Shown here piece by piece: positions 47,631 through 62,459 of a stretch of DNA of 64,000 nt. The notes beneath the pieces are model-generated. The model made no database searches. It was not told the origin of the DNA and saw nothing but the letters and a program-made list of their open reading frames with translations. The DNA lies in assembly GCA_964603505.1 (NCBI GenBank), contig CAZRVT010000001.1:52215-116214 (forward strand). Reading direction: 5' to 3'. The position numbers and the translations under genes are program-made. Each line of letters opens with the position of its first letter. Position 1 is the first letter of the stretch. This DNA comes from an uncultured Holophagales bacterium (GTDB lineage: Bacteria; Acidobacteriota; Thermoanaerobaculia; UBA2201).

Positions 47631-49609
47631 CAGACCGGCCCCTCGGGCAGGGACAGGGTGATGGTGGTGCCATGCCCCACGCGGCTTTCCACCCGGATCT
47701 CGCCCCCGTGCCGCTCCAGGATGCCGTAGGCGATGGCCAGTCCCAGCCCCGTCCCGGTGGCCTTGGTGGTGAAGAAGGGCTCGAAGAGCTTGTCCTTGAT
47801 GTCGTCGGGGATGCCGGGCCCGGTGTCGCGGAAGGCCACCTCGATCCGGCCGCGGGCGGGGTCCCGCCGGGAGCCGATGTGGAGCGCCCCCCCCTGGGCC
47901 ATGGCCTCGGAGGCGTTGAGGACGATGTTCAGGACCACCTGCCGCATCTGGTCCTGGTCGGTCATCAGGGTCGGGAGGGCGGGGTCCAGGGCGGTGGTGA
48001 TCGCGATGTTCCGAAACGAGGCCTGGTTCCGCACCAGGGCCAGGACGTCCTCCACCACCCGGTTGAGCGAGGTGGCCGTCTTCTGCGGCGGGGTCTGCCG
48101 GGCGAAGTCGAGAAGCCCCTTGACGATCTTGCGGCACCGGAGGGTCTCGTCGACGATGGTCTGGAGGTCGGGGCGCCGGGGGTCGTCGGCCGGGAGGTCC
48201 TCGAGCATCAGGGAGGCGTTGGTGAGGATGCCGGTGAGGGGGTTGTTGATCTCGTGGGCCACGCCGGCGGCCAGCTTGCCGACGGCGGCCAGCTTCTCGG
48301 TCTGGAAGAGCTGGGCTTGCATGGCTTTCAGCTCGGCGGTGCGCTGCTCCACCTTCTGCTCCAGGGTCTCGGTCCACCCCTTGAGGGCCTGGTGGGTGTC
48401 CTGCAGTTCGGCCACCATCCGGTTGAACGCGTGGGCCAGGTGGGCGATCTCGTCGGTCCCCCGCACCGGCACCCGCTGGGCGTAGTCCCCCGTCGCCACC
48501 TCGTCGGCGGCCCGCGCCATCGCGGCGACGGGCCGGGCGATCTTCTGGGCCACGCGCGTAGCGACGATGATCAGGAGGACCACCCCCAGGGCGGCGATCC
48601 CCAGGAAGAGCGCCAGGGAGCGATGGAGGCCGTCCCGGTAGGGCTTCTCCAGGAGCCCGACGTAGAGCATCCCCACGGTCCGGTCCTCGAGGTTCTTGAG
48701 GGGGGCGTACGCGGAGAGGTACCAGTCGTTGACGACGAAGGCGCGCCCCCGCCAGGTCTCCCCCCGATCCAGGACCGCCTCCGCCACCTCCGCCGAGACG
48801 CGGGTGGCGATGGCCCGGGCCCCGTCGGCCCCCTTGACGTTGGTGCTGACGCGGACGTCCCCCTGGAAGATGGTGACGGTGCCGGTCTCGCGCCCCCGGT
48901 AGAGGGCGTCCTTAAAGACCACGGTGCGCACCTTGTCCACAAGGGTGTAGTTGCGGTTGAGGAGGTTCCCCCCGACGAGGGCCCCCAGAAACCGCTTGGA
49001 GGGGGTGAAAACGGGGGCGCCCCCCTTGAGCATCAGCCCCGCCGTGAGGCGCTTCTGGTCCGTGGGCCGGGCATGGGGGGTGGGGGCCAGGTCCATGGCG
49101 GCCTGCATCGCCAGGGCCTCCGAGGCGCGCCGCAACTCCTCCTCGCCGATGACCTCGGTGCTGGCCACGGGGCTCCGGCGCGCCAGGACCTCCTGGACCG
49201 TGGGGTCGGCCCGGACGTCGTCGCCGGAAAGCTCCGGGTTGGCCGCCCGGAAGACCACCGTCCCCTGGGCGTCCACCAGGGTGAGCACGTCCAAGCCCTC
49301 CTCGGCCCGGATGCGCTCCAGCTCCGGCCCCAGGTCCGCCCGATCCCCCTCGGAGAGGGCCCGGTAGAGGACCATGCGCGTGGCGTGGATCCGCAGGGTG
49401 TCCTTGAGCCGGTCGAGGGCGTTGGCGTAAATCTCCTTGGCCGATTCCAGATCGGAGTTGATCTTGGACTGGGCCTGGCCGTAGACGTGCTTCTTGATGG
49501 TCTGCACCCCCACGATGGTGGTGATGAGGGCGGGGACCAGGATGGCGACCGCGAAGGAGAGGATGAGGCGGGCCCGGAGGCTGCTCCGGATGAGCGACTG
49601 GAGGGTCAC
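47630..49609 (-). CDS. Sensor histidine kinase (periplasmic Cache-like sensor, HAMP, HisKA, HATPase_c)
   Basis: Two TM segments flanking a ~300-aa sensor domain. H-box AAGVAHEINNPL, N-box LNIVLNASEA, DTGPGIP, GTGLGLAI. ATGA overlap with the upstream hydrogenase maturation protease gene. Confidence 0.85.
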   Translation of the reverse strand: MTLQSLIRSSLRARLILSFAVAILVPALITTIVGVQTIKKHVYGQAQSKINSDLESAKEIYANALDRLKDTLRIHATRMVLYRALSEGDRADLGPELERIRAEEGLDVLTLVDAQGTVVFRAANPELSGDDVRADPTVQEVLARRSPVASTEVIGEEELRRASEALAMQAAMDLAPTPHARPTDQKRLTAGLMLKGGAPVFTPSKRFLGALVGGNLLNRNYTLVDKVRTVVFKDALYRGRETGTVTIFQGDVRVSTNVKGADGARAIATRVSAEVAEAVLDRGETWRGRAFVVNDWYLSAYAPLKNLEDRTVGMLYVGLLEKPYRDGLHRSLALFLGIAALGVVLLIIVATRVAQKIARPVAAMARAADEVATGDYAQRVPVRGTDEIAHLAHAFNRMVAELQDTHQALKGWTETLEQKVEQRTAELKAMQAQLFQTEKLAAVGKLAAGVAHEINNPLTGILTNASLMLEDLPADDPRRPDLQTIVDETLRCRKIVKGLLDFARQTPPQKTATSLNRVVEDVLALVRNQASFRNIAITTALDPALPTLMTDQDQMRQVVLNIVLNASEAMAQGGALHIGSRRDPARGRIEVAFRDTGPGIPDDIKDKLFEPFFTTKATGTGLGLAIAYGILERHGGEIRVESRVGHGTTITLSLPEGPV

Positions 49610-50097
49610 TCGCCCATCCCGGGGGCCCCGAGCCAGCGGTCGACGACGCGCCGGCCGCGGTCCACGTACGCCGGCAGGGCCCGGGCCACCTTTTCCGTCA
49701 ACCCTTCCTCGATGAGGAAGGGGTCCTCCACCTCCATGGCCAGAATCACCAGCTCGTCCGGAATGGGCAGGCCCATCCGCCGCGCGATCTCCATGGCCAT
49801 GGGGAGGCCGATGTAGTGGGGGGAGGGGGACGGGACCGGGGCCAGCGACGCGATGCCGAACTCCTTGATGGTGCCCGGCTCCTCCCCCTGCTGGATGGCG
49901 TCGAGGACGAGGACCCGGCGGTAGGGCACGAGGTGGTCGAGCAGGCCGAGGCTGGACTCCGGGGCCTCCACGACGTCCACCCGGCCGCGATAGTGCGCGT
50001 CCAGGGCGCGGCCGGCGTAGAGGCCGAGGCCGTCGTCCTTCAACTGCTCGTTGCCGAGGGCGAGAACCAATATATCCTTGCGGTCGTCGGTCGTCAT
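49606..50097 (-). CDS. Hydrogenase maturation endopeptidase (HyaD/HybD/FrhD family)
   Basis: VLALGNEQLKDDGLG motif with conserved Asp and His ligands; 163 aa. Confidence 0.85.
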   Translation of the reverse strand: MTTDDRKDILVLALGNEQLKDDGLGLYAGRALDAHYRGRVDVVEAPESSLGLLDHLVPYRRVLVLDAIQQGEEPGTIKEFGIASLAPVPSPSPHYIGLPMAMEIARRMGLPIPDELVILAMEVEDPFLIEEGLTEKVARALPAYVDRGRRVVDRWLGAPGMGE

Positions 50098-50152: not shown

Positions 50153-51613
50153 CTACGTGTTGAACTCCCGCACCTTTTCCCCGCGGTGGTCGTAGATCCG
50201 AACCGAGAGCGGATAGTGCCCCGGCAGGGTGTGGGTGCCGCAGCCGTGGCAGGGGTCGTAGGCGCGGTAGGTCATCTCCACCATGTTGAGGATCCCGTCG
50301 TCCGCCTTGCCCCCCTTGATGAAGGCCTTGGCGGAGCGCTGAAGCCCCAGGTTCATGGCGGCGGAGTTGTGCTGGGTGGCCACGATGATGTTGGCCTTCT
50401 CGATGATGCCGTTGGGGTCGGTTGTGTAGTGGTGGATGAGCAGGCCGCGCGGCGCCTCCACGATGCCGACGCCCTCCTCGGGGGTCCGGGACGGGATGGC
50501 GCGCACCTTGGGGTCCAGGATCTCGGGGTCGTGGGCCAGCTCTTTGATATGCTCGGCCGCGTAGAGGGCTTCGATGAGGCGAGCCCAATGGTAGGCCAGG
50601 GTGAAGTGGACCGGCCTGCCGCCCAGCGTCGCGTACATCTTCTCGTATTCGGCCTGGGCCAGCGGGGTGGCCATGCCGTCGGAGGCGTTGAGCCGGGCGA
50701 GGGGGGCGGTGCGGTAGACGCCGCTCTCCTCGCCGTCCTTCCACCCCTGCCAGCCGACCTTCTTGAGGAACGGGAACTTGATGTAGCTCCAGGGTTCCAC
50801 GTGCTCCCCGATGTGCTCGGTGTACTCGGGGCTGCGGAACTTGTTGAACTCCTTCCCCGCGGGGGTGACCGTGCGGATCATCCCGTCGTAGAAGTTGACC
50901 TTGTTGGCCCCGTCCACCATGCCGATGTAGTAGGTCTTGTTGATGTAGGCGTCGCCGGTGATCAAACCGACGTAGTCCTTGTTCTTGAGGACGATGTCGT
51001 TGAAGGCCTGGAGGGAGAAGAGGGCGAAGTCCACGCCGGCGGCGGCGACCGCCTGCAGGTTGGCCAGGTCGTCCTTCTTGAAGGGCTTGGTCACGCCGCC
51101 GGGAAGTCCGAGGACGGGATGCACCGCCTTGCCTCCCATCCGGGTCATGATGTCGCGCAGTTCGCGGCGGATCTTGATCACCTTGCCGCCGATCTCCAGC
51201 CCCACCTTCCCCAGCACCCCGACGATGTTGCGCTCGGCCCGGGGGGCCGCGGGGCCCACGATGAAGTCGGGGCCGCCGAGGTAGTAGAAGTGGAGGGTGT
51301 GGTCCTCGAGCATGAAGATGGAGTAGAAGAGGTCGCGGAGCTTCTGGGCGGCCGGGGGCGGGTCCACCTTGAAGAGGGCGTCGAGCGCCTTGGTGGAGGC
51401 CATGTGGTGGGCCGTGGGGCAGACGCCGCAGATGCGCTGGGTGATGCGCGGCATCTCTTCGGCGGCCCGCCCGACGCAGAACTGCTCGAATCCCCGCAGC
51501 TCGGGGATCTGCAGGTAGGCGTTTGCCACGTCGCCCTTATCGTCGAGGAAGATCTCGATCTTGCCGTGGCCCTCGAGGCGGGTGATGGGGTCGATGGTGA
51601 TGCGCTTTTCCAT
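50153..51613 (-). CDS. mvhA: [NiFe]-hydrogenase large subunit, group 3 (MvhA-like)
   Basis: N-terminal RxEGHG, L1 CGVC, C-terminal DPCHGCGTH followed by a short extension (protease substrate). Confidence 0.9.
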   Translation of the reverse strand: MEKRITIDPITRLEGHGKIEIFLDDKGDVANAYLQIPELRGFEQFCVGRAAEEMPRITQRICGVCPTAHHMASTKALDALFKVDPPPAAQKLRDLFYSIFMLEDHTLHFYYLGGPDFIVGPAAPRAERNIVGVLGKVGLEIGGKVIKIRRELRDIMTRMGGKAVHPVLGLPGGVTKPFKKDDLANLQAVAAAGVDFALFSLQAFNDIVLKNKDYVGLITGDAYINKTYYIGMVDGANKVNFYDGMIRTVTPAGKEFNKFRSPEYTEHIGEHVEPWSYIKFPFLKKVGWQGWKDGEESGVYRTAPLARLNASDGMATPLAQAEYEKMYATLGGRPVHFTLAYHWARLIEALYAAEHIKELAHDPEILDPKVRAIPSRTPEEGVGIVEAPRGLLIHHYTTDPNGIIEKANIIVATQHNSAAMNLGLQRSAKAFIKGGKADDGILNMVEMTYRAYDPCHGCGTHTLPGHYPLSVRIYDHRGEKVREFNT

Positions 51614-51628
51614 GGGCGTTCTCCTCGG

Positions 51629-52588
51629 TCAGACCTTGCGCTTGAGGTACGATTTGGACATCGAGTAGCGGTAGAAGGTGCCGGCGGGATCGGGGATGGA
51701 CTCGACGAGCTTGGCGATGGCCTCGTCCTCCTTGGCGTCGAACAGGGAGGCGAGGGCCGAGACGAACTTGGCCCCCTGGTCCGTGACGCCGTCGATGGGA
51801 CCCATGCAGCCCCGGCAGGGGCTGTTGCCGTGGATGCAACGCTCGTCGCATCCGCCCCGGGTGACGGGGCCCATGCAGATGACCCCTTGGGCCAGGAAGC
51901 ACTTCTCCTCGTCCAGCTCGATCTCGTGGGGCCGGTAGAACTTGGTGATGGAGAGCTTCTCCGGCTTGGTCTTGTTCCGCTCGCAGGTGTCGCAATTGGT
52001 GCGGTTGGGGGCCAGCACCGCCCCCTTGGGGGGGAGCTTGCCCTCCAGCAGGGCCTGGACGGCCGCCATGAAGAGGGCCGGCGGGACGGTGCAGCCGGGC
52101 AGGTAGTAGTCCACGTCGATGACCTGGTCGAGGGCGTACACCTGCTCCCACAGTTTCGGAAGGGTGAGCGTCCCCTCGGCGACCTTCGTCTCCTCCTGGG
52201 GGTACACCTTCGCGGGGTTGACGGAAGAGACGGTGTCCACGTAGGCGGTCTTCATGATCTCGGCCTTGGTGGTGAAGTTGGCCAGGGCCGGGATGCCGCC
52301 CAGGTGGGCGCAGGAGCCGAACGCCACCACGACCTGCGACTTCCTCCGGAGGAGGTGGACCATCTCCTCCTGCTCGGAGGAGCGGATGGCCCCGTTGATG
52401 AACGCCACGGTGATGGCCCCGTCGGCCATCGCCTCCAGGTCCTCCCGCTTGAAGTCCATGGCGCAAGGCCAGAAGACGATGTCCACGGCCGCGACGACCT
52501 TGAGGACCTCCTCGGCCAGGTCCACGACGGTCTCCTCGCACCCCCCGCAGGAGGCGCACCAGTAAAAGGCGACCTTCGGCTTAGCCAT
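51629..52588 (-). CDS. mvhG: [NiFe]-hydrogenase small subunit, group 3c (MvhG-like)
   Basis: CASCGGCEE proximal-cluster motif, further Cys clusters (CDTCERN, CMGPVTRGGCDERC, CRGCMGP). Confidence 0.85.
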   Translation of the reverse strand: MAKPKVAFYWCASCGGCEETVVDLAEEVLKVVAAVDIVFWPCAMDFKREDLEAMADGAITVAFINGAIRSSEQEEMVHLLRRKSQVVVAFGSCAHLGGIPALANFTTKAEIMKTAYVDTVSSVNPAKVYPQEETKVAEGTLTLPKLWEQVYALDQVIDVDYYLPGCTVPPALFMAAVQALLEGKLPPKGAVLAPNRTNCDTCERNKTKPEKLSITKFYRPHEIELDEEKCFLAQGVICMGPVTRGGCDERCIHGNSPCRGCMGPIDGVTDQGAKFVSALASLFDAKEDEAIAKLVESIPDPAGTFYRYSMSKSYLKRKV

Positions 52589-53030
52589 GCACGACCTCCT
52601 TCCGGACCTTCGAGGGCCCGAGGGCGCGGATCTGCTCGGTGAACTCGTTGACGACGTGCTGGAACTTGTCCCCCTCGGCCGCCGAGATCCACTCGAGGCG
52701 GAACCGCTCGGGCTCGATGCCGAACTGGGGGAGCATCCTCTTCAGGAGGTGGTAGCGCCGCAGGGCCTTGAAGTTCCCCTCCTGGTAGTGGCAGTCGGAG
52801 GGGGTGTGGCAGCCGGCCACCAGGACGGCGTCGGCCCCCTCGGCGAAGGCCTTCATGACGAACTGGCTGTCCACCCGCCCGGAGCACATGACGCGGATGG
52901 GCCGCACGTTGGGCAGGTATTTCATGCGGGCGGTCCCGGCCAGATCGGCGCCGGTGTACGAGCACCAGTTGCACAGGAACGCCACGATGCGGGGCTCGAA
53001 CGCATGGGCTTGGGATGTCGCGCTCATCAC
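52581..53030 (-). CDS. mvhD: MvhD/FlpD-type hydrogenase iron-sulfur subunit
   Basis: RIVAFLCNWCSY..VMCSGRVD..VLVAGCH MvhD signature; 149 aa. Confidence 0.85.
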   Translation of the reverse strand: MMSATSQAHAFEPRIVAFLCNWCSYTGADLAGTARMKYLPNVRPIRVMCSGRVDSQFVMKAFAEGADAVLVAGCHTPSDCHYQEGNFKALRRYHLLKRMLPQFGIEPERFRLEWISAAEGDKFQHVVNEFTEQIRALGPSKVRKEVVHG

Positions 53031-53039
53031 ATATCCCTC

Positions 53040-54791
53040 CTATACCGCCAGGATCCCTTCGATCTCGGCGAAGATCTGCTCGTCGCGGAAGTGCTTCTGG
53101 AAGGCCGCGGCCGAGGGGCAGGCGGCCACGCAGGTGCCGCACCCCTTGCAGAGGGCCTCGTTGATGACCGAGCGGTTCTTCTCCTTGTCGTAGGCGATCG
53201 CCGTGTAGGGACAGAGGCCGACGCAGATCTGGCAGCCGGAACAGAGCTCCTCGACGATCTCGGCCGTCACCGCCTCGGTCTCCACCTCGCCGCGCTGGAT
53301 CAGGGAGAGCGCCGCCGAGGCGGCCGCGCCGGCCTGGGCCACCGTGTCCGGGATGTCCTTGGGGCCCTGGCAGGCGCCGGCGATGAAGATGCCGTCGGCC
53401 GCCGTGGAGACGGGAGCCAGCTTGGGGTGCTTCTCGGTGAAGAAGCCGTCCTTGCCCGTGCTGCAGGTGAAGAGGTGGGAGAGTTCCCGCGCCTCGGGCT
53501 TGGCCTCGATGGCGAGGCAGAGGACCACCAGGTCCACGGGGATGCGGCGGACGACGCCGATCATCGTGTCCTCCGCCCGCATGACGAGGCGCCCCTCTTC
53601 CGAGGGGTCCAGGGCGGCGTCGTTGATCTCCGCCACCTTCCCCCGGACGAAGTTGACCCCCTCCTTCAGCAGGCGGTTGTAGAACTCTTCGTACCCCTTC
53701 CCGAAGCACCGCATGTCGATATAGAAGTTGTAGACCTCGCAGTCGTGGATCTTCTCCTTGATCAGATGGGCGAACTTCAGGGCGTACATGCAGCAGACGC
53801 GGGAGCAGTATTCGTGGTATTTCTGGTCGCGGCTCCCCACGCAGTGGACGATCCCGATGCTCTTGGGAACCTTTCCGTCGGCGGTCAGGATCTTGCCCCC
53901 CGTGGGGCCGCCGGCGTTGTTGAGGACCTCGAAATCGAGGCTGGTCATCACGTTCTTGTACTTGCCGTACCCGTATTCCTTCAGCCCGCGGGGGTCCTGC
54001 AGCTGGAACCCGGTGGTGAGGAGGATGGAGCCCACCTCCACCTCCTCCACCCGATCCTGCTGGGCGTGGTCGATGGCCCGGGCCTCGCAGACGTCGACGC
54101 ACACTTGGCACTTGCCCGTCTTGAAGTGGATGCAGGAGTCCCGGTCGATGACGGCCTTGCGGGGGACCGCCTGCATGAAGTCGATGTGGATGGAGGTCAG
54201 GGGCCCCATCGGCATGGCGGCGTAGATCCCCTCCTGGTCGTCCTTGATCTTGATGGCGCCGGTGGGGCAGACGGAGGCGCAGGCGCCGCAGGCGATGCAC
54301 TGCTCGCTGGTGCGGTCGTAGGCGGTGGAGACGGTGCGGTGCGGACCCCGGTCGAAGAAGCCGAGGACGTGGGCCCCCACCACGTCGCTGCAGACCTTGA
54401 CGCAAAGACCGCAGAGGATGCAGTCGTCGTCGCCGCGTCCGAAGCGGCCGGTGGCGCCGTACTCCTCCGCCAGCGCGTTGATCACGGGAACGTTGCCGCA
54501 CCGGGCGAGCATCCACTCCAGGATCATCCGGCGGCTGCGGAGGACCCGCTCGGATCGGGTGAACACCTCGATCCCGTTGCTGACGGGGTAGTTGCAGGCG
54601 GTCACCATCCGGACGCGGTTCCGCAAGTGCACCTCCACGGTGCAGATGCGGCAGACGCCGTAGGCCTCCACCAGCGGGTGGTGGCACAGCGTGGGGATTT
54701 TGACGCCCGCCTTCTCCGCCGCCTGGAGCAGGGGCGTCCGGTCCGCGACCTCAAGCTCGATGCCGTCGATCTTGATCTTGGCCATGTTCAT
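53040..54791 (-). CDS. hdrA: Fusion protein: NuoG/HndD-N-terminal-like Fe-S domain (2Fe-2S + 4Fe-4S clusters) joined to the C-terminal ~two-thirds of heterodisulfide reductase subunit A
   Basis: N-terminal: 2Fe-2S (CHHPLVEAYGVCRIC), CILCGLCVKVC, CIACGACASVCP, C..C..C...C. C-terminal: SILLTTGFQ..YGYGKY..SLDFE..GGPTGGKI..IVHCVGSRD..YCSRVCCMY, GIFIAGACQGPKDIPDTV and C-terminal ferredoxin CSGCQICVGLCPY../CKGCGTCVAACP, colinear with HdrA residues ~300-650. Confidence 0.75.
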   Translation of the reverse strand: MNMAKIKIDGIELEVADRTPLLQAAEKAGVKIPTLCHHPLVEAYGVCRICTVEVHLRNRVRMVTACNYPVSNGIEVFTRSERVLRSRRMILEWMLARCGNVPVINALAEEYGATGRFGRGDDDCILCGLCVKVCSDVVGAHVLGFFDRGPHRTVSTAYDRTSEQCIACGACASVCPTGAIKIKDDQEGIYAAMPMGPLTSIHIDFMQAVPRKAVIDRDSCIHFKTGKCQVCVDVCEARAIDHAQQDRVEEVEVGSILLTTGFQLQDPRGLKEYGYGKYKNVMTSLDFEVLNNAGGPTGGKILTADGKVPKSIGIVHCVGSRDQKYHEYCSRVCCMYALKFAHLIKEKIHDCEVYNFYIDMRCFGKGYEEFYNRLLKEGVNFVRGKVAEINDAALDPSEEGRLVMRAEDTMIGVVRRIPVDLVVLCLAIEAKPEARELSHLFTCSTGKDGFFTEKHPKLAPVSTAADGIFIAGACQGPKDIPDTVAQAGAAASAALSLIQRGEVETEAVTAEIVEELCSGCQICVGLCPYTAIAYDKEKNRSVINEALCKGCGTCVAACPSAAAFQKHFRDEQIFAEIEGILAV

Positions 54792-54809
54792 CGTCGTCCT
54801 CCTCCCGCC

Positions 54810-56708
54810 TTAGACCCGCCGGATGGCGTCGCGCTTGCACACTTCGATGCAGGCGCCGCACTTGATGCACTTGTGGATGTCGATGGAGTGGACCCGCTTC
54901 ACGTCGCCGTAGATAGCCGCCGCGGAGCAGGGCCGGACGCAGGCGTGGCAGCCGTCGCACTTGGCGGGGTCGATGGAGTAGGTGATGAGCTCTTTGCACA
55001 CCCCGCCGGGGCACTTGCGGTCCTTGATATGGGCTTCGTACTCGTGCTTGAAGTACTGCCGGGTGGAAAGGACCGGGTTCGGGGCCGAGGTGCCGAGGGC
55101 GCAGAGGCAGCAGTCCTGCATCACCGCCCCCATCTCGTCCAGGAGCGCCAGGTCGTCCATCGTCCCCTTCCCCTCGCTGATGCGGGTGAGGGTGTCGAGC
55201 ATCGTCTTGAGCCCCTCGCGGCAGGGGGTGCACTTGCCGCACGACTCCTCGGTGAGGAACGCGATGAAGTAGCGGGCCACGTCCACCATGCAGGTCTGCT
55301 CGTCCATGACGATCATCCCGCCGGAGCCCATCATGGAGCCGGCCTCGGTGAGGGAGTCAAAGTCCACCGGCATGTCGAGCTTGTCCTCGGGGAGGCATCC
55401 CCCCGAGGGGCCGCCGGTCTGGACGGCCTTGAACTTCTTCCCCCCGGGAATGCCGCCCCCGATGTCGAAGATGATCTCCCGCAGGGTGATCCCCATGGGG
55501 ACCTCGATGAGGCCGGTGTTGTTGATCTTGCCCACCAGGGAGAACACCTTGGTGCCGGAGGATCCGTTCCAGGGGTTCTCCTTCACGTCGCCGGTCCCCA
55601 TGGAGGCGAACCACTCGGCGCCCCGCTGGATGATGACGGGAACGTTGGCGTAGGTCTCCACGTTGTTGAGATTGCTGGGACGGTCCTGGTAGCCGTGCTC
55701 CACCGTGTGGATGTACTTGGCCCGCGGCTCCCCGACCTTCCCCTCGAGGGAGGCCATGAGCGCGGTGCTCTCGCCGCAGACGAAGGCGCCCGCCCCCTCG
55801 CGGATCTCGATGTCGAAGTCCATTCCGGTCCCCAGGATGTTCTTCCCGAGCAGGCCGAGTTCCCGCGCCTGGTCGAGGGCGCGCTGCAGGCGCTGGCGCG
55901 CCAGGGGATACTCGTGGCGGATGTAGACGAACCCCTCCCGGGCTCCGATGGCGCGGGCGGCGATGACCATCCCCTCGATGACCGAGTGGGGGTCGCTCTC
56001 GATGATGGAGCGGTCCATGAAGGCCCCGGGGTCGCCCTCGTCGGCGTTGCAGATGATGACGGGCTCGCGGGCGGGGAGCCGCGACGACGAGGCCCCCCGG
56101 TCCGCCCCCCTCGGGTCCATGGTCATCCGCTGGCCGGAGGTGTCGGCGGCGTGCAGAGCCGCCTTCCGGCAGGTCTCCCACTTGATTCCGGTCGGGAACC
56201 CCCCGCCGCCCCGCCCCCGGAGCCCGCTCTTCTTGATCTCGAGAATGATGCCCTCGGGGGTCATCTGGGTGAGGGCCTTCGCCAGGGCCTGATAGCCGTC
56301 CACGGCGATGTAGTCCTCGATGCGGTCGGGATCGATGAGCCCGCGGTTGCGCAGGACGACGAGCTTCTGCTTGGCGAAGAAGGGGATGTCCTTGAGGGCG
56401 GGAATGGGGTCTTTCTCTGTCGGCGGGGTGTAGAGGAGCTTCTTGACCGGGCGCCCTTTGAGGAGGTGCTCCTCCACGATCTGCGGCACCTCCCGCTCGC
56501 CCACGCGGCAGTAGAAGACGCCGTCGGGCTGGACGATCATGATGGGGCCCTCGGCGCAGAAGCCCTGGCAGCCGGTGGTGATCACCTGGACCTCGGCGGC
56601 CAGGTTGCGCTTCGCGATCTCCGCCTCGAGGGTCTTCCTCAGGTTGAAGGAGCCCCCGGCGACGCAGCCGGTGCCGGTGCAGATGAGGCAATGGGTGCGG
56701 TAGGCCAT
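54810..56708 (-). CDS. NuoF/HoxF/HndC-like NAD(P)H-binding flavoprotein subunit with N-terminal thioredoxin-like 2Fe-2S domain and C-terminal 2x[4Fe-4S]
   Basis: GRGGGGFPTG (FMN/NADH), ESCGKCTPCREG (N3 cluster), C-terminal CDGCHAC..C and CIKCGACIEVC. Confidence 0.9.
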   Translation of the reverse strand: MAYRTHCLICTGTGCVAGGSFNLRKTLEAEIAKRNLAAEVQVITTGCQGFCAEGPIMIVQPDGVFYCRVGEREVPQIVEEHLLKGRPVKKLLYTPPTEKDPIPALKDIPFFAKQKLVVLRNRGLIDPDRIEDYIAVDGYQALAKALTQMTPEGIILEIKKSGLRGRGGGGFPTGIKWETCRKAALHAADTSGQRMTMDPRGADRGASSSRLPAREPVIICNADEGDPGAFMDRSIIESDPHSVIEGMVIAARAIGAREGFVYIRHEYPLARQRLQRALDQARELGLLGKNILGTGMDFDIEIREGAGAFVCGESTALMASLEGKVGEPRAKYIHTVEHGYQDRPSNLNNVETYANVPVIIQRGAEWFASMGTGDVKENPWNGSSGTKVFSLVGKINNTGLIEVPMGITLREIIFDIGGGIPGGKKFKAVQTGGPSGGCLPEDKLDMPVDFDSLTEAGSMMGSGGMIVMDEQTCMVDVARYFIAFLTEESCGKCTPCREGLKTMLDTLTRISEGKGTMDDLALLDEMGAVMQDCCLCALGTSAPNPVLSTRQYFKHEYEAHIKDRKCPGGVCKELITYSIDPAKCDGCHACVRPCSAAAIYGDVKRVHSIDIHKCIKCGACIEVCKRDAIRRV

Positions 56709-56724
56709 CGTGCGCTCCCTTCCC

Positions 56725-57108
56725 TTAGCTCGCGGTCTCGCAGCCGGCGGCGAGGGCGTACTCCTTCACCACCGCGCCGCCCACGACGTGCTCGGCCAGG
56801 ACGCGCTGGGCCTTGGCCGGGTTGAGGTCCACGTATTTGACGGGGGGCCGGCCGGCGATCTCCACGGTGGCCATCGGCTCCCGGCTGCACAGCCCCGCGC
56901 ACGAGGAGGTGGCGATCAGGACGTCGGCGAGTTTTCTGGCCTCCACCTCCTTCAGAAACGCGTCCAGCACCTCCCGCGCCCCCGCGGCGATGCCGCAGGT
57001 GCTCATGTGCACCGTCACGCGGACCCGGGCCTCGCCGGCCCGCAGGACCATCCGGTGGCGGGCCTCTTCCTTGATCTTCTTCAGGTCGTCGATGGTGATC
57101 CGGGGCAT
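56725..57108 (-). CDS. Thioredoxin-like [2Fe-2S] ferredoxin (HndB-like)
   Basis: 127 aa with C..C pattern (STCGIAAG..SSCAGLC) typical of the small Fd subunit of NADH-dependent bifurcating enzymes. Confidence 0.65.
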   Translation of the reverse strand: MPRITIDDLKKIKEEARHRMVLRAGEARVRVTVHMSTCGIAAGAREVLDAFLKEVEARKLADVLIATSSCAGLCSREPMATVEIAGRPPVKYVDLNPAKAQRVLAEHVVGGAVVKEYALAAGCETAS

Positions 57109-57109
57109 C

Positions 57110-57580
57110 TCACGCCTCCTTGGGCCGGTACTTCTTCAGGATGCGGGGCACGTCGGCCTGCTTCAGCTTGCCGTGCACGTCCTTCCCGACGGTTACGGCC
57201 GGCGCGAGACCGCAGCAGCCGAGGCAGTTGACGGTGTTGACGGAGAACATCAGATCGTCGGTGGTCTGGCCCCGGAGCACGCCGAGCTCCCGCTCGAACG
57301 CCTCGAGCAGGCGCGGGGCCCCCTTCACGTGGCAGGCGGTCCCCATGCAGACGTGGATGGGGTACCGCCCCACCGGCTTGAGGCTGAAGGCCCGGAAGAA
57401 GGTGGCGATCCCGAGGACGCTGGGGAGCGGGACGTCCAGCTGCTCGGCGACCCGCTGGAGGACCGGCTCGGGGAGATGGGTGAACTCCTCCTGGCACTCC
57501 AGAAGCATCCCGATCAGGTGCTCCTTCTTCCGTCCGTGGCGTTGGATGATGGCGTCGGCTTTGGCGATGTCGATGGACAT
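57110..57580 (-). CDS. NuoE/HoxE-like [2Fe-2S] subunit
   Basis: CMGTACHVKG..CLGCCGLAP NuoE cluster motif; 156 aa. Confidence 0.85.
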   Translation of the reverse strand: MSIDIAKADAIIQRHGRKKEHLIGMLLECQEEFTHLPEPVLQRVAEQLDVPLPSVLGIATFFRAFSLKPVGRYPIHVCMGTACHVKGAPRLLEAFERELGVLRGQTTDDLMFSVNTVNCLGCCGLAPAVTVGKDVHGKLKQADVPRILKKYRPKEA

Positions 57581-57590
57581 GGCGGTCTCC

Positions 57591-58502
57591 CTAGTTCATC
57601 TTCTCGCCGGCGGGAGCGAGGGCGGCTGGCCGGGCCTCGGGGGCCGACTGGCCGCGGTTGTCCCCGATGACGAGCTGGCCCTTGACGATGGTGCGCGCCG
57701 CGGGGATGCGGCGGCCGGGGCACTTCTCCCAGCAGACGCCGCACCCGGTGCACTTGTCGGTGTCCACGTAGCGCGCCTTGCGCTGGATCTTGACCTTGAA
57801 GTTCCCCACGAACCCGCTCACCTCCTTGATCTCGGCAAGGGTCAGGAGGTCGATGTTCTTGTTCTGCGCCACGGAGACCGTCTTGGGCGTCAGGATGCAG
57901 GCGGCGCAGTCGAGGGTGGGAAAGGTCTTGTCGAACCGCGACATGTGGCCGCCGATGTAGGACTTCTGCTCCACGAGGGTGACCTTGTTGCCGGCGTGGG
58001 CGATATCGAGAGCGGCGTGGATACCCGCGATGCCGGCCCCGACCACGAGGACGCGGGGGTTGACCGGCACCGTCTTGGCCTCCAGCGGCTGGTGGTGCGC
58101 CACGCGGTGGATGGCCGCCAGCAGGAGCGCCTTGGCCTTGCCGGTGGCGTCGTCCGGGTCCTCCGTGACCCACGAGCAGTGCTCGCGGATGTTGGCCATC
58201 TGGAAAAAGTAAGGGTTGATCCCCCCCTCCTCCGCGGCCCGGCGGAAAGTGAGCTCGTGCATCAGCGGGGAGCACGAGGCGACGACGATGCGGTTGAGGT
58301 GGTGGTCCTGGATGTCCTTTTTAATCAGCTCCTGCCCGGGGTCCGAGCACATGTACTTGTACTCGCGGGCCACCGCCACGTGCGGGCCGTGGTCGCGGGC
58401 GAACCGCATCACCTCGTCCACCCGCACCTTTCCGGCGATGTTGGATCCGCAGTGGCAGACATAGACGCCGATGCGGAGGGTGCCGTTCGTTCCGTTCGTC
58501 AT
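57591..58502 (-). CDS. hdrA: Heterodisulfide reductase subunit A, N-terminal part only (Cys4 cluster + FAD fold + first ferredoxin Cys motif)
   Basis: IGVYVCHCGSNIAG..VASCSP (HdrA N-terminal cluster), VLVVGAGIAGIHAALD (FAD), KCTGCGVCWEKCP. Ends ~40 aa later, where canonical HdrA would continue. Start ATG at 58502 after the junk N-terminus of the track ORF. Confidence 0.7.
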   Translation of the reverse strand: MTNGTNGTLRIGVYVCHCGSNIAGKVRVDEVMRFARDHGPHVAVAREYKYMCSDPGQELIKKDIQDHHLNRIVVASCSPLMHELTFRRAAEEGGINPYFFQMANIREHCSWVTEDPDDATGKAKALLLAAIHRVAHHQPLEAKTVPVNPRVLVVGAGIAGIHAALDIAHAGNKVTLVEQKSYIGGHMSRFDKTFPTLDCAACILTPKTVSVAQNKNIDLLTLAEIKEVSGFVGNFKVKIQRKARYVDTDKCTGCGVCWEKCPGRRIPAARTIVKGQLVIGDNRGQSAPEARPAALAPAGEKMN

Positions 58503-58513
58503 GGAAGGCCTCC

Positions 58514-59407
58514 TTACGACGCCGCGACCAGCCGCGCGGGCGGCGGGGTCATCAGGTCCGCAAACCCCAGCTGCTTCGGCTCCACCCCCAGGGCGTAGCC
58601 GAGGATCTGCGTGAAGTGGAGGATGGGGAGGGGCCGCAGCGTCCGGCCCCGCGCCTGGTCGAACCCGGCGTCGAACCGGGCGATGACCTTGGCCTGGTAG
58701 GCGTCCAGGTTGAAGTGGCAGAGGGGGCAGGCGGTGGCGACGGCGTTGGCGCCGCGCTTCTCCATCTCGCTGAGGAGCATGTAGACCAGCCGCTGGCCCA
58801 CGTCTTCCACGGTCCCCGTGAGCGACCCGCCGCAGCAGCGCGTCTTGTACGGGTAGGGCACGGGCTCGGCGCCGGCCGCCGCCATCAGGCGGTCCATCCG
58901 CTGGGGGTCGTAGGGATCGTCCATGTCCGCGTAGGGGCGGACGAGCTGGCATCCGTAGTACGAGGCCACCTTCCATCCCTTCAGGGGTCGCTTCACCGCC
59001 GCGGCGACGGCCTTCACCCCCTCGTCGGTGGCGAGCAGCTCCAGGGGGTGCTGGACCTTGACCTTGCCCCCGTAGTGCAGGTCTACCCGGTCCATGGCCT
59101 TGTTGATGGGGTCGCCCGGGTGGCCCTGAAGGTACTCGTTGGCCTTCCGGAGCGTGAGGTAGCACCCCGCGCACGGGGCCACCAGTTCGTCGACCTTCTG
59201 CCGCTCGGCCAAGGCGAGATTGCGGCCCGAGACGGCCATGGCCATGTCCTTGTCCACGCCAAAGTAAGCCGTGGCGCCGCAGCAGTTCCAGTCGTCCAGC
59301 TCCTTGAGCTCCATCCCGAGGGCCTTGAAGACGCCCAGCAGCGACCGCTCGTAGGCCTTGGAGGTGGAGCGGACGGAGCACCCGGGGTAATAGCCGTAGG
59401 TCTTCAT
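58514..59407 (-). CDS. hdrB: Heterodisulfide reductase subunit B
   Basis: Two CCG domains (CCG..C..C, YYGCQ..; CCGGS..CPLCHFN). RBS AAGGAGAAGG. Confidence 0.85.
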   Translation of the reverse strand: MKTYGYYPGCSVRSTSKAYERSLLGVFKALGMELKELDDWNCCGATAYFGVDKDMAMAVSGRNLALAERQKVDELVAPCAGCYLTLRKANEYLQGHPGDPINKAMDRVDLHYGGKVKVQHPLELLATDEGVKAVAAAVKRPLKGWKVASYYGCQLVRPYADMDDPYDPQRMDRLMAAAGAEPVPYPYKTRCCGGSLTGTVEDVGQRLVYMLLSEMEKRGANAVATACPLCHFNLDAYQAKVIARFDAGFDQARGRTLRPLPILHFTQILGYALGVEPKQLGFADLMTPPPARLVAAS

Positions 59408-59994
59408 TGCGCCTTCTCCTTGACCGCCTTCACCAGGTTCGCCAGCTGCGCCCGGTTTTTAATCTTGTCGCGGTGATAGAAGTCCTTGACGGCCATCCGG
59501 CCCCTGCGCAGGAGGGCCAGCCCCATCGGGGCCATCTTCATCAGCCCCGCAGGGTTCGTCTTAAGGAGCATCTCCATCACCACCGCCATCTCGGAGTTGC
59601 GGCCGTTCTTCGCGATGATGTCGGCCATCGCCTGCGCCAGCGCCGGGGCGGGGGCGTTCTTGGGGTAGATCCCCTCCTCGATGGCCATCCGCTTGAGGGA
59701 GTACATCACCTCGGTGATCTTGATCTGGGCGGGGCACATTACCGTGCAGGAATAGCACGAGGAGCAGAGCCAGATGGTGTGGCTCCGCAGGGCCTCGTCT
59801 TTGAACCCCGCCTTGACCATGGCCATCAATTTGCGGGGGGTGAAATCCATGTAAAGGGAGACGGGGCAGGTGGAGGAGCAGGTGCCGCATTGAATGCACT
59901 CGGAGATTTTGGAGCACCCGGAGTGTTGCGCCACCCGTTGCGCGAAACCCTTGTCCAACTCCGATTCGTATTTCACGGTCCGTACACTTTCCAT
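59404..59994 (-). CDS. hdrC: Heterodisulfide reductase subunit C
   Basis: CIQCGTCSSTCP and CSSCYSCTVMCP ferredoxin motifs. Start moved to the ATG at 59994, preceded by AAGGAGGG. Confidence 0.8.
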   Translation of the reverse strand: MESVRTVKYESELDKGFAQRVAQHSGCSKISECIQCGTCSSTCPVSLYMDFTPRKLMAMVKAGFKDEALRSHTIWLCSSCYSCTVMCPAQIKITEVMYSLKRMAIEEGIYPKNAPAPALAQAMADIIAKNGRNSEMAVVMEMLLKTNPAGLMKMAPMGLALLRRGRMAVKDFYHRDKIKNRAQLANLVKAVKEKAQ

Positions 59995-60066
59995 GGTCCC
60001 TCCTTTACCATTCGGTCTCGCAGAACTCTTTGACAATCAAAGCATGTGAAATGTGTCACTTGGGCG

Positions 60067-60112
60067 CAAGGCATTGTGAAGATTATCACATGTATATTAT
60101 CTCGTTAAGCCC
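60067..60112. promoter_or_regulatory. Two CRP/FNR/Rex-type palindromic operators (TGTGA-N6-TCAC[TA]) in the hdr operon leader
   Basis: tgtgaaatgtgtcact (60067-60082) and tgtgaagattatcaca (60097-60112). A further inverted repeat CTTTGA-CAA-TCAAAG sits at ~60049-60063. Confidence 0.4.
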
Positions 60113-60206
60113 ACCGGCCATGGCTTGAATACGCCTCCCCCGCGACTTTACGGCCTCAAGCGCAAACTCCCTTCCCCTTGTTGGAGGTGCATATCAAAAC
60201 GATTCA

Positions 60207-60222
60207 TGCAAGTTTCGCGCCA
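60207..60222 (-). promoter_or_regulatory. Predicted sigma54 (-24/-12) promoter for the hdr-nuo-mvh-HK-RR operon
   Basis: Minus-strand reading TGGCGCG-aaac-TTGCAtg versus consensus TGGCACG-N4-TTGCW. Located ~210 nt upstream of hdrC ATG. Two sigma54 activators are encoded in the window. Confidence 0.5.
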
Positions 60223-60443
60223 TGCATCGAAGGCCTCTTCAGGGGGTATGGTGTTGGGAAATGCGATTTTAGTGTTGTATTTTCCTACAATCGAGGCCGC
60301 CGCCAAACGGGATAGCCCCATTGCTCTACAACAGCAAGTTCCACGCGACCGCTTTCTTTTCGGTTCGGTCCCGTCACATGTTCTCGCACAATTTAGTACA
60401 ATAGGGTGTCCATGACTCCCGTGCTCGAAACAAGGGGCGTCTC

Positions 60444-61643
60444 ATGTTGAGCAACATCCCCGTTGAAGAGGCCCTTCGCCTGGTCTTGGGTGCCGTTCGA
60501 CCGGTGGGGGTCGAAAATGTTTCCCTCTGCGAATCGCTGGGAAGGGTTCTGGCGGAATCTGTTCGGGCCAGCGAGGCCAACCCTCCCTACGACAATTCAG
60601 CCATGGACGGTTACGGGCTGGCAGGCTCCCGCCTGGCAGCGCTCCCGGCCCGGCTGAAGATCGTAGGCACGGTTTTCGCAGGCAGCGCTTTTCGCGCCGC
60701 GCTGGGGCCCGGCGAGGTCGTCAAGATCATGACGGGCGCCCCCATCCCCCGGGGCGTGGATCGGGTCATCCCGTTCGAGGAGGCCTCGGAACAGGATGGC
60801 TGCGTCGTCATCACCCGCCTGCCCCCCTCCGGGATACACATCCGCCGCAAGGGGGAGGATTTCCCAAAAGGCGCCGTTCTGATCCCCAAAGGGAGAACCA
60901 TCCGACCCGCCGAAACAGCCATTCTGGCCGCCGTGGGGCGGCTTCGCGTGAGGGTTTTCCGGCGGCCCCGCGTGGCCATCCTCGCCACCGGGAACGAACT
61001 GGTCCCCGTCGGAACGCCACGGAAGCGTGGAACCATCCATGACTCCAACTCCCCGGCCCTCGCCGCCGCGGTGCTGGCCAGCGGGGGCCGCCCCGTCCTG
61101 CTGGGGATTGGACGCGATGCGGTGGCAGATCTCCAAAAAAAGATGGCCCGCGGTTTGGCCTCCGATGTCTTGATCGTGGCCGGCGGGGTCTCGGCGGGCG
61201 AGGCCGATTATTGCCTGGAGGCCCTGCGTTCCCTCGGGGGCCGGCTGATTTTCTACAAGGTCCGCCAGCGGCCCGGTCATCCCCTGGCGTTCGGCCGGGC
61301 GAGACGGAAACCCGTGTTCGTCCTGCCGGGGAACCCCGTTTCCGCCCTAATGGCCTTCTATCTTTACGTCCGGCCGGCCCTTCGCATCATGGGCGGAGCG
61401 GCGGAGGGAGACAACCGACCGGTGGCGGCCGAATTGGGGGAGGCCGTGAAGGGCAAGGCGGGAAGGACCGAATTTTACCGCGTCCGGCTGGAGGACTGGG
61501 ACGGGCGGACCCTGGCATTCCTCACCGGACCGCAGGGTTCCGGCATCCTCACCTCCCTGGCCGACGCCCACGGCTATATCGCGGTGCCCGAGCGGCTCGA
61601 AGGCCTGCCCAAGGGGGCGCGCGTGGAGGTGTATCCGCTGTGA
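60444..61643 (+). CDS. moeA: Molybdopterin molybdotransferase
   Basis: 399 aa; MoeA N-terminal and MoCF-biosynthesis domains (GNELVPVG..IHDSN, GGVSAGEAD). Confidence 0.9.
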   Translation: MLSNIPVEEALRLVLGAVRPVGVENVSLCESLGRVLAESVRASEANPPYDNSAMDGYGLAGSRLAALPARLKIVGTVFAGSAFRAALGPGEVVKIMTGAPIPRGVDRVIPFEEASEQDGCVVITRLPPSGIHIRRKGEDFPKGAVLIPKGRTIRPAETAILAAVGRLRVRVFRRPRVAILATGNELVPVGTPRKRGTIHDSNSPALAAAVLASGGRPVLLGIGRDAVADLQKKMARGLASDVLIVAGGVSAGEADYCLEALRSLGGRLIFYKVRQRPGHPLAFGRARRKPVFVLPGNPVSALMAFYLYVRPALRIMGGAAEGDNRPVAAELGEAVKGKAGRTEFYRVRLEDWDGRTLAFLTGPQGSGILTSLADAHGYIAVPERLEGLPKGARVEVYPL

Positions 61644-62458
61644 TGCAGGACCCCTTCGGCCGTTCGATCACCTACCTTCGGATCTCCGTCACCGACCGGT
61701 GCAACCTGCGGTGCCACTACTGCGTCCCCCCGGGAGAGATCCGGTGGGTTCCCCGCAGGGATCGCCTCGATTTCGAAGAGATCCGGGATTTCACGGCGGA
61801 GGCCGCCGCCGCCGGCATCACGAAAGTGCGGATCACGGGCGGGGAGCCCCTGGTGCGGCGGGACATCGTCCGCCTGGTGGAGATGCTCGCCGCCATCCCG
61901 GGGCTGGTGGAGCGGGCGATGACCACCAACGGCACTCGGTTGGCCCCTCTCGCGCGGGCGTTGAAGCGGGCCGGGCTCGACCGGGTCAACATTAGTTTGG
62001 ACACCCTCGACCCCGACCGCTACGCCCGCATCACCGGAGGCGGCGCGCTGGACGAGGCGCTGGCCGGGATCGCGGCCGCGCAGGAGGCGGACCTCCACCC
62101 GGTCAAAATCAATTTCGTCGTCCTTCCCGGCATCAACACGGACGAGGTGGAGCCCATGGCCGTCTTCTGCCGCGAACGCGGCCTGACGCTCCAGATCATC
62201 GAAGCGATGGACCTGCACCGCCGGCGCAATCCGGCCGAGCGCTTTCGCATGGCCCACCGCCCCGGCCCGTGCGAGGAGTGCAACAAGCTGCGCCTGACCT
62301 GCGACGGACGGTTGATCCCGTGCCTCTTTTCGGACCGCTTCATCCCTATCAGGGATTATCGTGGTCGCTACCGGGAGGCCATCGCCGAATGCGTGGCGAT
62401 CAAGCCCCGGCAGGGCGGATCGTTTGCCCACGGCGCCATGTGCCGGATCGGAGGCTGA
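61642..62458 (+). CDS. moaA: GTP 3',8-cyclase (radical SAM)
   Basis: LRISVTDRCNLRCHYC radical-SAM motif; ATGA overlap with moeA. Confidence 0.9.
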
Positions 62459-62459
62459 G

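Follow-up and report, generated by a model that had tools for sequence, protein, structure and literature searches.

Does an hdrA gene that is interrupted by other genes encode a broken enzyme, parts of independent enzymes, or a single enzyme whose electrons take a different path? This question is raised by an operon on the minus strand of a 64,000-nucleotide stretch of DNA from an uncultured Holophagales bacterium of the Acidobacteriota (GenBank assembly GCA_964603505.1, contig CAZRVT010000001.1, positions 52,215 to 116,214 of the forward strand), which we call the window and within which all positions below are given. The operon combines genes for a heterodisulfide reductase (Hdr), a [NiFe]-hydrogenase (Mvh), and a module of the Bfu family of bifurcating enzymes linked to nicotinamide adenine dinucleotide, NAD(H), and ferredoxin. 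We found that HdrA is encoded in two complementary pieces, that this arrangement recurs in about ten phyla, and that the operon probably specifies one soluble complex, in which MvhAGD-HdrABC would have a HydABC/Bfu-type NAD(H)/ferredoxin module wired into HdrA. Bifurcating enzymes determine the energetic limits within which anaerobes live, and the role of bacterial Mvh-Hdr complexes in the absence of coenzyme M (CoM) and coenzyme B (CoB) is a long-standing question; the Caldithrix genome paper stated the role of the Mvh-Hdr cluster as unknown. Among isolates, Thermoanaerobaculum aquaticum and Caldithrix abyssi are mentioned as having hdr-mvh clusters (PMC5317091).

HdrA is encoded in two complementary pieces

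The operon spans positions 50153-59994 in the order hdrC, hdrB, hdrA-N, a nuoE-like gene, a gene for a small [2Fe-2S] protein, a nuoF-like gene, a gene for a 583-residue fusion protein, mvhD, mvhG, and mvhA. Gene identities were assigned from translations of minus-strand open reading frames and from Pfam and NCBIfam scans, and both order and coordinates agreed with an initial annotation of this DNA. That annotation also described a tight operon with the Mvh genes downstream; neighboring genes from hdrC to mvhA are separated by -8 to +18 nt and each has its own GGAGG-type ribosome-binding site, which supports the unity of the operon. GC content is ~67% across the region, with an AT-richer intergenic gap of about 450 bp at positions 59995-60443.

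The hdrA-N gene (57591-58502; 303 aa) encodes the N-terminal Cys-cluster domain of HdrA and the first half of the flavin adenine dinucleotide (FAD) domain. These are followed by the first Cys motif (motif 1) of the inserted ferredoxin domain, at C251-P262 (nt 57717-57752), and by a tail of 41 residues in which the pattern R-(I/V)-P-x-x-R-x-I-x-x-G recurs among orthologs. The fusion gene (53040-54791) begins with a BfuA/HydA-N-type domain (residues 1-180, nt 54252-54791), which matched WorA (9mqx_A, E = 5e-41), HydA1 (8a6t_A), and the Pfam families Fer2_4 and Fer4_Nqo3. The remainder, residues 181-583 (nt 53040-54251), derives from HdrA: its linker is followed by C220x7C228xxC231xxxC235, which is motif 2 of the inserted ferredoxin domain, then by the rest of the FAD domain, and finally by a C-terminal ferredoxin domain of the 2x[4Fe-4S] type.

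Several alignments establish that these pieces are complementary, as the initial annotation proposed. First, on the 777-position NCBIfam HdrA2 profile, HdrA-N covered positions 1-255 (E = 4e-105), fusion residues 195-581 covered 265-641 (E = 2e-129), and MvhD covered 638-775. Second, HdrA-N residues 10-262 aligned with residues 5-257 of Methanothermococcus thermolithotrophicus HdrA (5ODC_A; E = 3e-91) and fusion residues 161-580 with residues 242-649 (E = 5e-111). The apparent 16-residue overlap in 5ODC_A (242-257) is a CxxCxxCxxxCP motif, and its counterpart in the fusion (C165-C175) is the second motif of the BfuA/HydA-type 2x[4Fe-4S] domain, in which WorA residues 7-188 (9mqx_A) align with fusion residues 6-185; because this motif belongs to the BfuA-type domain, the HdrA pieces complement rather than overlap one another. 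Third, alignment with unsplit bacterial HdrA placed the cut after the first Cys motif and before the second within the inserted ferredoxin domain, the region in which a break had been anticipated, and the fusion turns from BfuA-like to HdrA-like directly after "CPTGAI". The domain order initially given for the fusion was right, but its boundaries shift: the NuoG/HydA-like part extends over ~180 rather than ~230 residues, and the HdrA-like part starts near HdrA residue 258 rather than 300, which means that the fusion keeps motif 2. Finally, the sequence motifs that make up an HdrA FAD domain (the Cys-cluster domain plus GxGxxG, CxxC, and GD motifs) are found only in the two chains taken jointly, with GAGIAG (155-160) and DCAAC (198-202) on HdrA-N and HCVGSRD, CSRVCC, and DGIFIAG (466-472) on the fusion.

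The two four-Cys motifs of the inserted ferredoxin domain are likewise divided, with C251-C261 on HdrA-N and C220, C228, C231, and C235 on the fusion. By contrast with the single ~650-aa polypeptide of ordinary HdrA, the window has two genes 2.8 kb apart with three other genes between them. The C-terminal ferredoxin domain of the fusion has invariant Cys sets (C517-527 and C548-558), and mvhD lies directly downstream. An intact hdrA elsewhere would have undercut the proposed split; the 64-kb window contains no second hdrA-like gene. Read-through from hdrA-N into the nuoE-like gene was considered and ruled out for the window, as the 10-nt gap leaves the latter in another frame.

The split operon recurs across phyla

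The initial annotation suggested a database search for the same split architecture, and such searches found it widely. Protein searches with the fusion returned, at 56-81% identity and with coverage of the full length, at least 120 different clusters defined at 90% identity, and a search seeded with a Calditrichota ortholog returned at least 120 further clusters, for a total of more than 240; in a 50%-identity representative library, ~15 entries extend across the junction. Among species-representative genomes, a scan confirmed 592 relatives; 80 of these loci were retrieved and their synteny was analyzed by tblastn. The split operon was present in 36 of these (L001-L035 and L050), with the conserved order hdrCB-hdrAN-nuoE-(fd)-nuoF-fusion-mvhDGA, in hosts from ~10 phyla (Acidobacteriota, Aminicenantes, Zixibacteria, Ignavibacteria, Dehalococcoidia, Anaerolineae, Planctomycetota, Phycisphaerae, Verrucomicrobiota, Myxococcota, and Calditrichota). 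Ordinary unsplit hdrCBA-mvhDGA operons were found in L037-L080, apart from L050, in the same phyla. Among the matches listed for the Calditrichota-ortholog search, all names derived from metagenome-assembled genomes (MAGs), and none was that of a cultured host.

Conservation at the junction is strict. Of 29 split HdrA-N orthologs, 28 retain motif 1, and the remaining gene is cut by a contig end; all 16 Cys in the four motifs around the junction are invariant; and the Cys of the BfuA-type domain are invariant in 76 homologs. Natural gene fusions join the same parts. Six loci (L014, L018, L019, L020, L021, and L024) encode HdrA-N and NuoE as one in-frame fusion of 426-454 aa, and one representative (P0262, 706 aa) is a triple fusion of the BfuA N-domain, HdrA-C, and MvhD. 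These fusions argue that the parts act in one complex and define subunits that touch; those of HdrA-N with NuoE would place the BfuC N-terminus next to motif 1 of the inserted ferredoxin domain. Two longer proteins (P0252 and P0256; 1087 and 1101 aa) add a second HdrA-like unit, recalling the double HdrA of BamE. The HdrA-N-NuoE fusions occur in Planctomycetota, Phycisphaerae, Verrucomicrobiota, and Myxococcota, and in one MAG labeled 'archaeon'.

These results bear on the idea that the split is non-functional, whether as an assembly join, as a pseudogenized hdrA carrying a mobile hyd-type cassette, or as two independent enzymes sharing an operon. A segment of ~25 residues (motif plus linker) occurs in both HdrA pieces, as recombination between ferredoxin motifs would produce, and split and unsplit forms interleave in a rough neighbor-joining tree, both of which fit an accidental origin. 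Against this idea stand identical junctions in 36 loci of ~10 phyla and in more than 240 full-length protein clusters, the invariance of all cluster ligands, the in-frame HdrA-N-NuoE and fusion-MvhD variants, the lack of a complete FAD site on either HdrA piece alone, and the recovery of the 179-kb contig, from JGI metagenome sample 3300037501, in two samples. Cross-phylum conservation rules out an assembly join, which the initial annotation had considered not obvious in view of the short intergenic gaps, and also rules out a pseudogene; we consider a non-functional split extremely improbable overall. The simplest history would be that recombination between ferredoxin-type motifs brought a hyd-type operon into hdrA, and that the remainder of HdrA took the place of the H-cluster domain.

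The insert resembles bifurcating Bfu enzymes

The initial annotation described the insert as NuoE, a ferredoxin, and NuoF, followed by a NuoG/HndD-type N-terminus on the C-terminal HdrA piece, and our profile and structure matches bear this out. The NuoE-like protein (BfuC; 57110-57580) matched Pfam 2Fe-2S_thioredx (E = 1.5e-46), had HoxE and NuoE as its best NCBIfam profiles, and contains [2Fe-2S] ligands at Cys 78, 83, 119, and 123. The NuoF-like protein (BfuB; 54810-56708; 632 aa) aligned over its whole length with HydB from two bifurcating enzymes, NiFe-HydABCSL (7t2r_B, E = 3e-235) and FeFe-HydABC (7q4v_B), through the N-terminal thioredoxin-like [2Fe-2S] domain, the flavin mononucleotide (FMN) loop, the CxxCxxC...C cluster, the HIKDxxCPxxxC segment, and the C-terminal 2x[4Fe-4S] domain. 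Its ligands comprise C10, C15, C47, and C51; GRGGGGFPTG; C490xxCxxC; H560x5Cx4C; and two C-terminal CxxCxxCxxxC motifs, and thus both the FMN/NADH site and clusters B2-B5 are represented. B2-B5 are the extra cofactor sites that set bifurcating BfuB apart from non-bifurcating NuoF homologs (PMC9304861).

The BfuA-type domain of the fusion carries ligands for one [2Fe-2S] cluster (C36, C47, C50, and C66) and two [4Fe-4S] clusters (C124-134 and C165-175), in keeping with the A1, A2, and A4 clusters of BfuA N-domains, in which A3 is optional. The His-ligated A3 cluster is absent: the domain lacks an HxxxCxxC motif, and conservation does not extend to the single Cys98. In structure matches this domain was closest to WorA, which likewise has no A3; in WorA and other 'Type 2' BfuA subunits, electrons enter through A4 (PMC9304861).

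The insert was initially taken for a NuoEF diaphorase to which an NAD(H)-linked split Hdr/Mvh complex was plumbed. The split and the NAD(H) link stand, the latter as a prediction from sequence, but the ligand sets shared with HydB point to a bifurcating-type Bfu module instead of a plain diaphorase, which implies that ferredoxin should be expected as a partner besides NAD(H); as a Bfu-type module, the insert would couple the turnover of NAD(H) and ferredoxin to that of a third substrate. A plain NAD(H) diaphorase has some points in its favor: non-bifurcating relatives of NuoEFG exist (PMC9304861), NAD(P)H-binding domains are grafted at the same HdrA site in ANME-1 (PMC9012536), and some orthologs of the window operon have a GltD-like NAD(P)H/FAD domain in place of the C-terminal ferredoxin domain of NuoF. 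Yet none of the ligand sets by which bifurcating BfuB is told apart from plain NuoF is missing from the window protein, where each aligns with solved HydB, and sending an electron of roughly -500 mV to NAD+ alone would waste the energy of bifurcation. We therefore regard a plain diaphorase as improbable.

A NuoE-like protein, a small ferredoxin, a NuoF-like protein, and a HydA-N-like domain also follow one another in the tetrameric Hnd/HydABCD operons. The small thioredoxin-like [2Fe-2S] protein of the window (56725-57108) occupies the HndB/HydD position; it matched Pfam 2Fe-2S_thioredx weakly and 9n5u_B, the N-terminal [2Fe-2S] domain of NfnB, with E = 8e-13. It has only four Cys (38, 70, 74, and 123), lacks the usual CX4C pair, and may have no cluster or be dispensable; His34 may stand in for the missing ligand. 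About a third of split operons lack this gene, and for this reason we treat its product as accessory.

The NuoF-like protein of the window also has a 32-aa low-complexity insert, LHAADTSGQRMTMDPRGADRGASSSRLPAREP (residues 185-216, nt 56061-56156, minus strand), between the FMN loop and the conserved ICNADEGDPGAF segment. This insert is absent from HydB structures, and the NuoF-like ortholog in L002 (607 aa) is 25 residues shorter than the window protein.

A predicted electron path through the exit arm of HdrA

The genes on either side of the split encode the usual partners of HdrA. The hdrC gene (59404-59994; 196 aa) has two CxxCxxCxxxC motifs, as expected for two [4Fe-4S] clusters, and matched Pfam Fer4_8 and NCBIfam CoB_CoM_SS_C (83.1 bits). 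The hdrB gene (58514-59407; 297 aa) matched Pfam CCG in two stretches (E = 1e-31) and TIGR03288 (174.7 bits); both of its CCG motifs are present, the first being CX31CCX35CXXC. On the input side, mvhD (52581-53027) matched Pfam FlpD (E = 7e-54) and NCBIfam VhuD; mvhG, for the [NiFe]-hydrogenase small subunit (51629-52588), matched VhuG (E = 1e-57); and mvhA, for the large subunit (50153-51613), matched VhuA (E = 1e-122) and contains RICGVC and DPCHGCGTH motifs. Together with a gene for a HycI-type hydrogenase maturation protease just downstream (49606-50097, minus strand; precomputed Pfam HycI), these make up the gene set of a group 3c-type [NiFe]-hydrogenase. The public hdrC gene call is probably too short: the IMG version has 148 aa from a start that drops the first CxxCxxCxxxC motif, and the ATG at 59994, which is preceded by a strong AAAGGAGGG site, gives 196 aa with both motifs.

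In solved Hdr complexes, the cluster of the thioredoxin reductase (TrxR)-like domain leads to HdrC and HdrB, and the inserted ferredoxin domain is the low-potential exit to ferredoxin or polyferredoxin (PMC9012536; preprint 10.64898/2026.04.10.717634). In the window, the input side (MvhD and Mvh) and the high-potential side (HdrBC with both CCG motifs) are unchanged, and the output domain alone is cut and fused. Because the BfuA cluster chain is fused before the second half of this exit domain, low-potential electrons would be expected to pass to BfuBC rather than to free ferredoxin. HdrA would then be built from two chains, with the FAD domain, the [4Fe-4S] motifs of the TrxR-like domain, and the inserted ferredoxin domain each spanning both, and each of the two [4Fe-4S] clusters of the inserted ferredoxin domain would be ligated by both chains.

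These features suggest a path in which H2 would be oxidized at Mvh and its electrons bifurcated at the HdrA FAD. The high-potential electron would pass via HdrC and HdrB to some disulfide, and the low-potential electron would run through A4, A2, and A1 to BfuBC, where the FMN/Fe-S site would bifurcate again to NAD+ and ferredoxin (Fd). The predicted net reaction is approximately 4 H2 + 2 RSSR + NAD+ + Fd(ox) -> 4 RSH + NADH + Fd(red, 2-), and the complex may also run in reverse. Relevant potentials are -414 mV for H2, about -140 mV for the disulfide, -320 mV for NAD+, and about -450 mV for ferredoxin. Calculated from these standard potentials, the summed reaction yields about -29 kJ per mol H2 compared with about -23 kJ for the classical one, so the complex could work at lower H2. 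Serial bifurcation of this kind, in which the low-potential electron of HdrA would not be released but would pass two inter-chain [4Fe-4S] clusters to Bfu and be split between NAD+ and ferredoxin, letting hosts make both from H2 too low for HydABC-type enzymes, is a tentative proposal to which we assign somewhat less confidence than to the single complex itself, and which in our judgment falls a little short of probable.

The same complex could instead work in the opposite direction. Bfu would confurcate NADH and reduced ferredoxin into the inserted ferredoxin arm and, with thiol oxidation at HdrBC, would drive H2 evolution at Mvh, in effect a [NiFe] counterpart of the confurcating hydrogenases with an extra thiol/disulfide branch. 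Bfu enzymes are reversible, the homologous module in class II benzoyl-CoA reductase (BCRII) is a confurcating input, and many split operons in other loci carry a cassette of DRTGG, HATPase, HydS-like Fe_hyd_lg_C, and PHP genes; this cassette usually accompanies the HydABC operons of fermenters. MAG studies have also given such group 3c clusters a role in re-oxidizing NADH and ferredoxin (PMC7509429). Reversal would require HdrA to run fully backwards with a thiol co-donor, however, and no source for re-reducing the disulfide is evident in the window; moreover, the window operon has no HydS-like cassette and is flanked instead by a two-component system of the sigma-54 type. The sequence itself does not favor either direction, and we judge operation in reverse to be unlikely, though well worth considering.

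Five points weigh against a single complex with serial bifurcation, the reading that we prefer. First, HdrB (174.7 versus 345), HdrC (83.1 versus 160), and the HdrA pieces (353 and 433 versus 1100) do not reach the cut-offs of the CoB-CoM equivalogs, so the identities of HdrB and HdrC do not fix the high-potential substrate. Second, in a neighbor-joining tree of HdrA-C, split and unsplit sequences interleave; as the tree was built without support values and certain loci labeled 'unsplit' are truncated by contig ends, we draw no conclusion about single versus multiple origin. Third, an AlphaFold2 model of the fusion alone (76-sequence alignment; predicted local distance difference test score, pLDDT, 74.5; predicted template-modeling score 0.44) has a confident BfuA-type N-domain (pLDDT ~90), but its linker and parts of the FAD domain are disordered, and the model is silent on inter-domain geometry. 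Fourth, we know of no biochemical precedent for an electron lowered in potential by HdrA feeding a second bifurcation. Finally, a fermentative lifestyle is common among the hosts, and the HydS-like cassette found in related operons is one that typically goes with H2-evolving HydABC operons, which makes the forward direction tentative.

Relation to described Hdr and Bfu systems

The closest described system is BCRII of Geobacter metallireducens, Bam[(BC)2DEFGHI]2 (preprint 10.64898/2026.04.10.717634; 'Bam-Bfu' in PMC9304861), which is the sole described enzyme that joins an HdrA-type flavoprotein to a Bfu module. As in the window, HdrA-type BamE, HdrBC-like BamD, and MvhD-like BamF are joined to a HydBC/Bfu module (BamGH plus NuoG-like BamI), and a cryo-electron microscopy preprint places the two bifurcation modules of BCRII in series (10.64898/2026.04.10.717634). 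The wiring differs. In BCRII, Bfu feeds the mid-potential input of HdrA via BamI, the C-terminal ferredoxin domain, and BamF; the tungsten subunits are reached through the inserted ferredoxin domain. By contrast, in the window, the inserted ferredoxin domain is itself the point of fusion to the BfuA domain, which lies upstream of motif 2, and the input side consists of MvhD, encoded next to the hydrogenase genes, and the [NiFe]-hydrogenase. HdrA is split in the window but a fused double unit in BamE, and the window operon contains no BamBC. With Bfu on the exit of HdrA in the window and on its input in BCRII, the order of the two energy-coupling steps would differ.

The MvhAGD-HdrABC complexes of methanogens (5ODC, 8RVU, and 7BKB) and bacterial group 3c clusters have the same six families in the same order, and the window keeps all of their HdrA domains and cluster ligands. 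In those complexes HdrA is one polypeptide and the low-potential electron goes to free ferredoxin or polyferredoxin, whereas in the window HdrA is two chains and the electron would reach a covalently attached Bfu. From the Bfu side, the window resembles NiFe-HydABCSL (7T2R), FeFe-HydABC (7Q4V and 8A6T), WorABCSL (9MQX), and NfnABC in having an hndABCD-like order of BfuC, small ferredoxin, BfuB, and BfuA and a complete BfuB, but after the BfuA N-domain it has the C-terminal two-thirds of HdrA rather than an H-cluster, pterin, or NfnB-like domain.

FlxABCD-HdrABC is an NADH-linked Hdr complex of non-methanogenic bacteria and resembles the window in having an MvhD-like subunit. It differs in that FlxA is not a NuoF/HydB homolog, HdrA is intact, and there is neither a hydrogenase nor a Bfu core. 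The Desulfovibrio complex is cited in PMC6037941. In HdrA9-11 of ANME-1, an NfnB-like insertion lies at the same site of HdrA and two bifurcation sites have been proposed (PMC9012536), which makes the inserted ferredoxin domain a known grafting point. The ANME-1 graft is an in-frame NfnB-family domain of ~500 aa in a single polypeptide; that in the window is a four-gene Bfu module splitting hdrA.

A 2022 survey of Bfu enzymes lists hydrogenase, Fdh, Nfn, F420, Wor, Bam, Codh, Por, Mbh, Nuo, and Rub types (PMC9304861); no Hdr-Mvh type is among them, nor is there an Hdr entry in one supplement of the survey. In the full-text literature searched, which did not extend to a 2021 review of HdrA(BC) modules (PubMed 33460586), the split HdrA/Bfu architecture is undescribed and no name such as Hdr-Bfu appears; the candidate papers found there deal with different arrangements of Hdr. 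Database labels for the pieces read only 'heterodisulfide reductase subunit A' or '4Fe-4S dicluster domain-containing protein', and as a consequence MAG reconstructions treat these operons as ordinary MvhADG/HdrABC clusters (PMC7509429) and probably misread the balance of hydrogen, NADH, and ferredoxin.

The window operon thus joins known parts in a new way, as a second, differently wired combination of Hdr and Bfu that is far more widespread than BCRII. Serial chaining of bifurcation modules was demonstrated structurally only in 2026, for benzoyl-CoA reductase (preprint 10.64898/2026.04.10.717634). If the path proposed here is correct, the complex would be a second case in which bifurcation modules are coupled in series, and no earlier case has Bfu on the output arm of HdrA; uncultured Acidobacteriota, Aminicenantes, Zixibacteria, Ignavibacteria, Chloroflexota, Planctomycetota, and other anaerobes would make NADH and reduced ferredoxin at low H2 at the cost of disulfide reduction. 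A FAD site and Fe-S clusters made from two chains would also provide a test case for HdrA folding and electron gating.

Variants among orthologous operons

Several orthologous loci depart from the arrangement in the window. A long NuoF-like form of ~1020-1040 aa occurs in L005 (4915-7980), L020, L025, L026, and L033. In the one form scanned, that of L005, an extra C-terminal GltD/NfnB-like region (Fer4_20 and Pyr_redox_2) is present and there is no match to the 2x[4Fe-4S] ferredoxin domain; this form may mark a version of the complex linked to NADP(H) or to another flavin. In five loci of a Chloroflexota group that includes Anaerolineae, Chloroflexia, and related MAGs (L027, L028, L030, L031, and L033), hdrA-N has an in-frame TGA at the second Cys of DCxxC (FPTLDCSTUILGPK, at approximately residues 196-202) and homology continues past it. 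This codon probably specifies selenocysteine at the redox-active pair near the FAD.

The cassette found inside the insertion in many loci consists of DRTGG, an anti-sigma-like HATPase, a HydS-like Fe_hyd_lg_C protein with a 'Putative Fe-S cluster' domain, and PHP plus HATPase; it lies before nuoE or before the fusion gene (for example, L002:1400-5283, L005:220-4044, and L019:4939-8023) and is absent from the window. In two Dehalococcoidia MAGs (L012:9911-12767 and L013:8897-11910), the place of mvhDGA directly after the split operon is taken by further BfuA-N-like, NuoE-like, and NuoF-like genes, a second such set. A Fidelibacterota chromosome (L036:8001-9488) encodes an HdrA-C homolog with a partial BfuA-like N-domain (query residues 91-197) without the 2Fe-2S part, and hdrA-N, nuoE, and nuoF were not detected within 8 kb upstream; this form could be an intermediate or a decayed one.

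Regulation and genomic neighborhood

A sigma-54-type -24/-12 promoter-like site, TGGCGCGAAACTTGCA, lies at positions 60207-60222 on the minus strand, ~213 nt upstream of hdrC in the AT-richer intergenic region. It is the sole match to TGGCNC-N5-TTGCW in the window, where 0.26 matches are expected by chance, but because 22 of 100 shuffled sequences had at least one match, the site by itself is suggestive only. Window neighbors give no hint of the disulfide substrate; they include the housekeeping genes for SecA, IMPDH, and RNase Y and a cluster for biosynthesis of the Mo/W cofactor (60444-64000, plus strand; MoeA, MoaA, MoaC, MOSC, MogA-like, MobA-like, and MobB), which is divergent from the hdr promoter region. 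The hdr-mvh operon itself contains no pterin enzyme. The SecA of the window has its nearest relatives, at 62-72% identity, in MAGs named Thermoanaerobaculia, a group of the Acidobacteriota. Directly after hycI are genes for a dCache/HAMP sensor histidine kinase (47630-49609, minus strand), the start of which overlaps the stop of the protease gene by 4 nt, and a sigma-54-dependent response regulator (46224-47630, minus strand), both from precomputed Pfam matches, and the operon may be under the control of this two-component system of its own.

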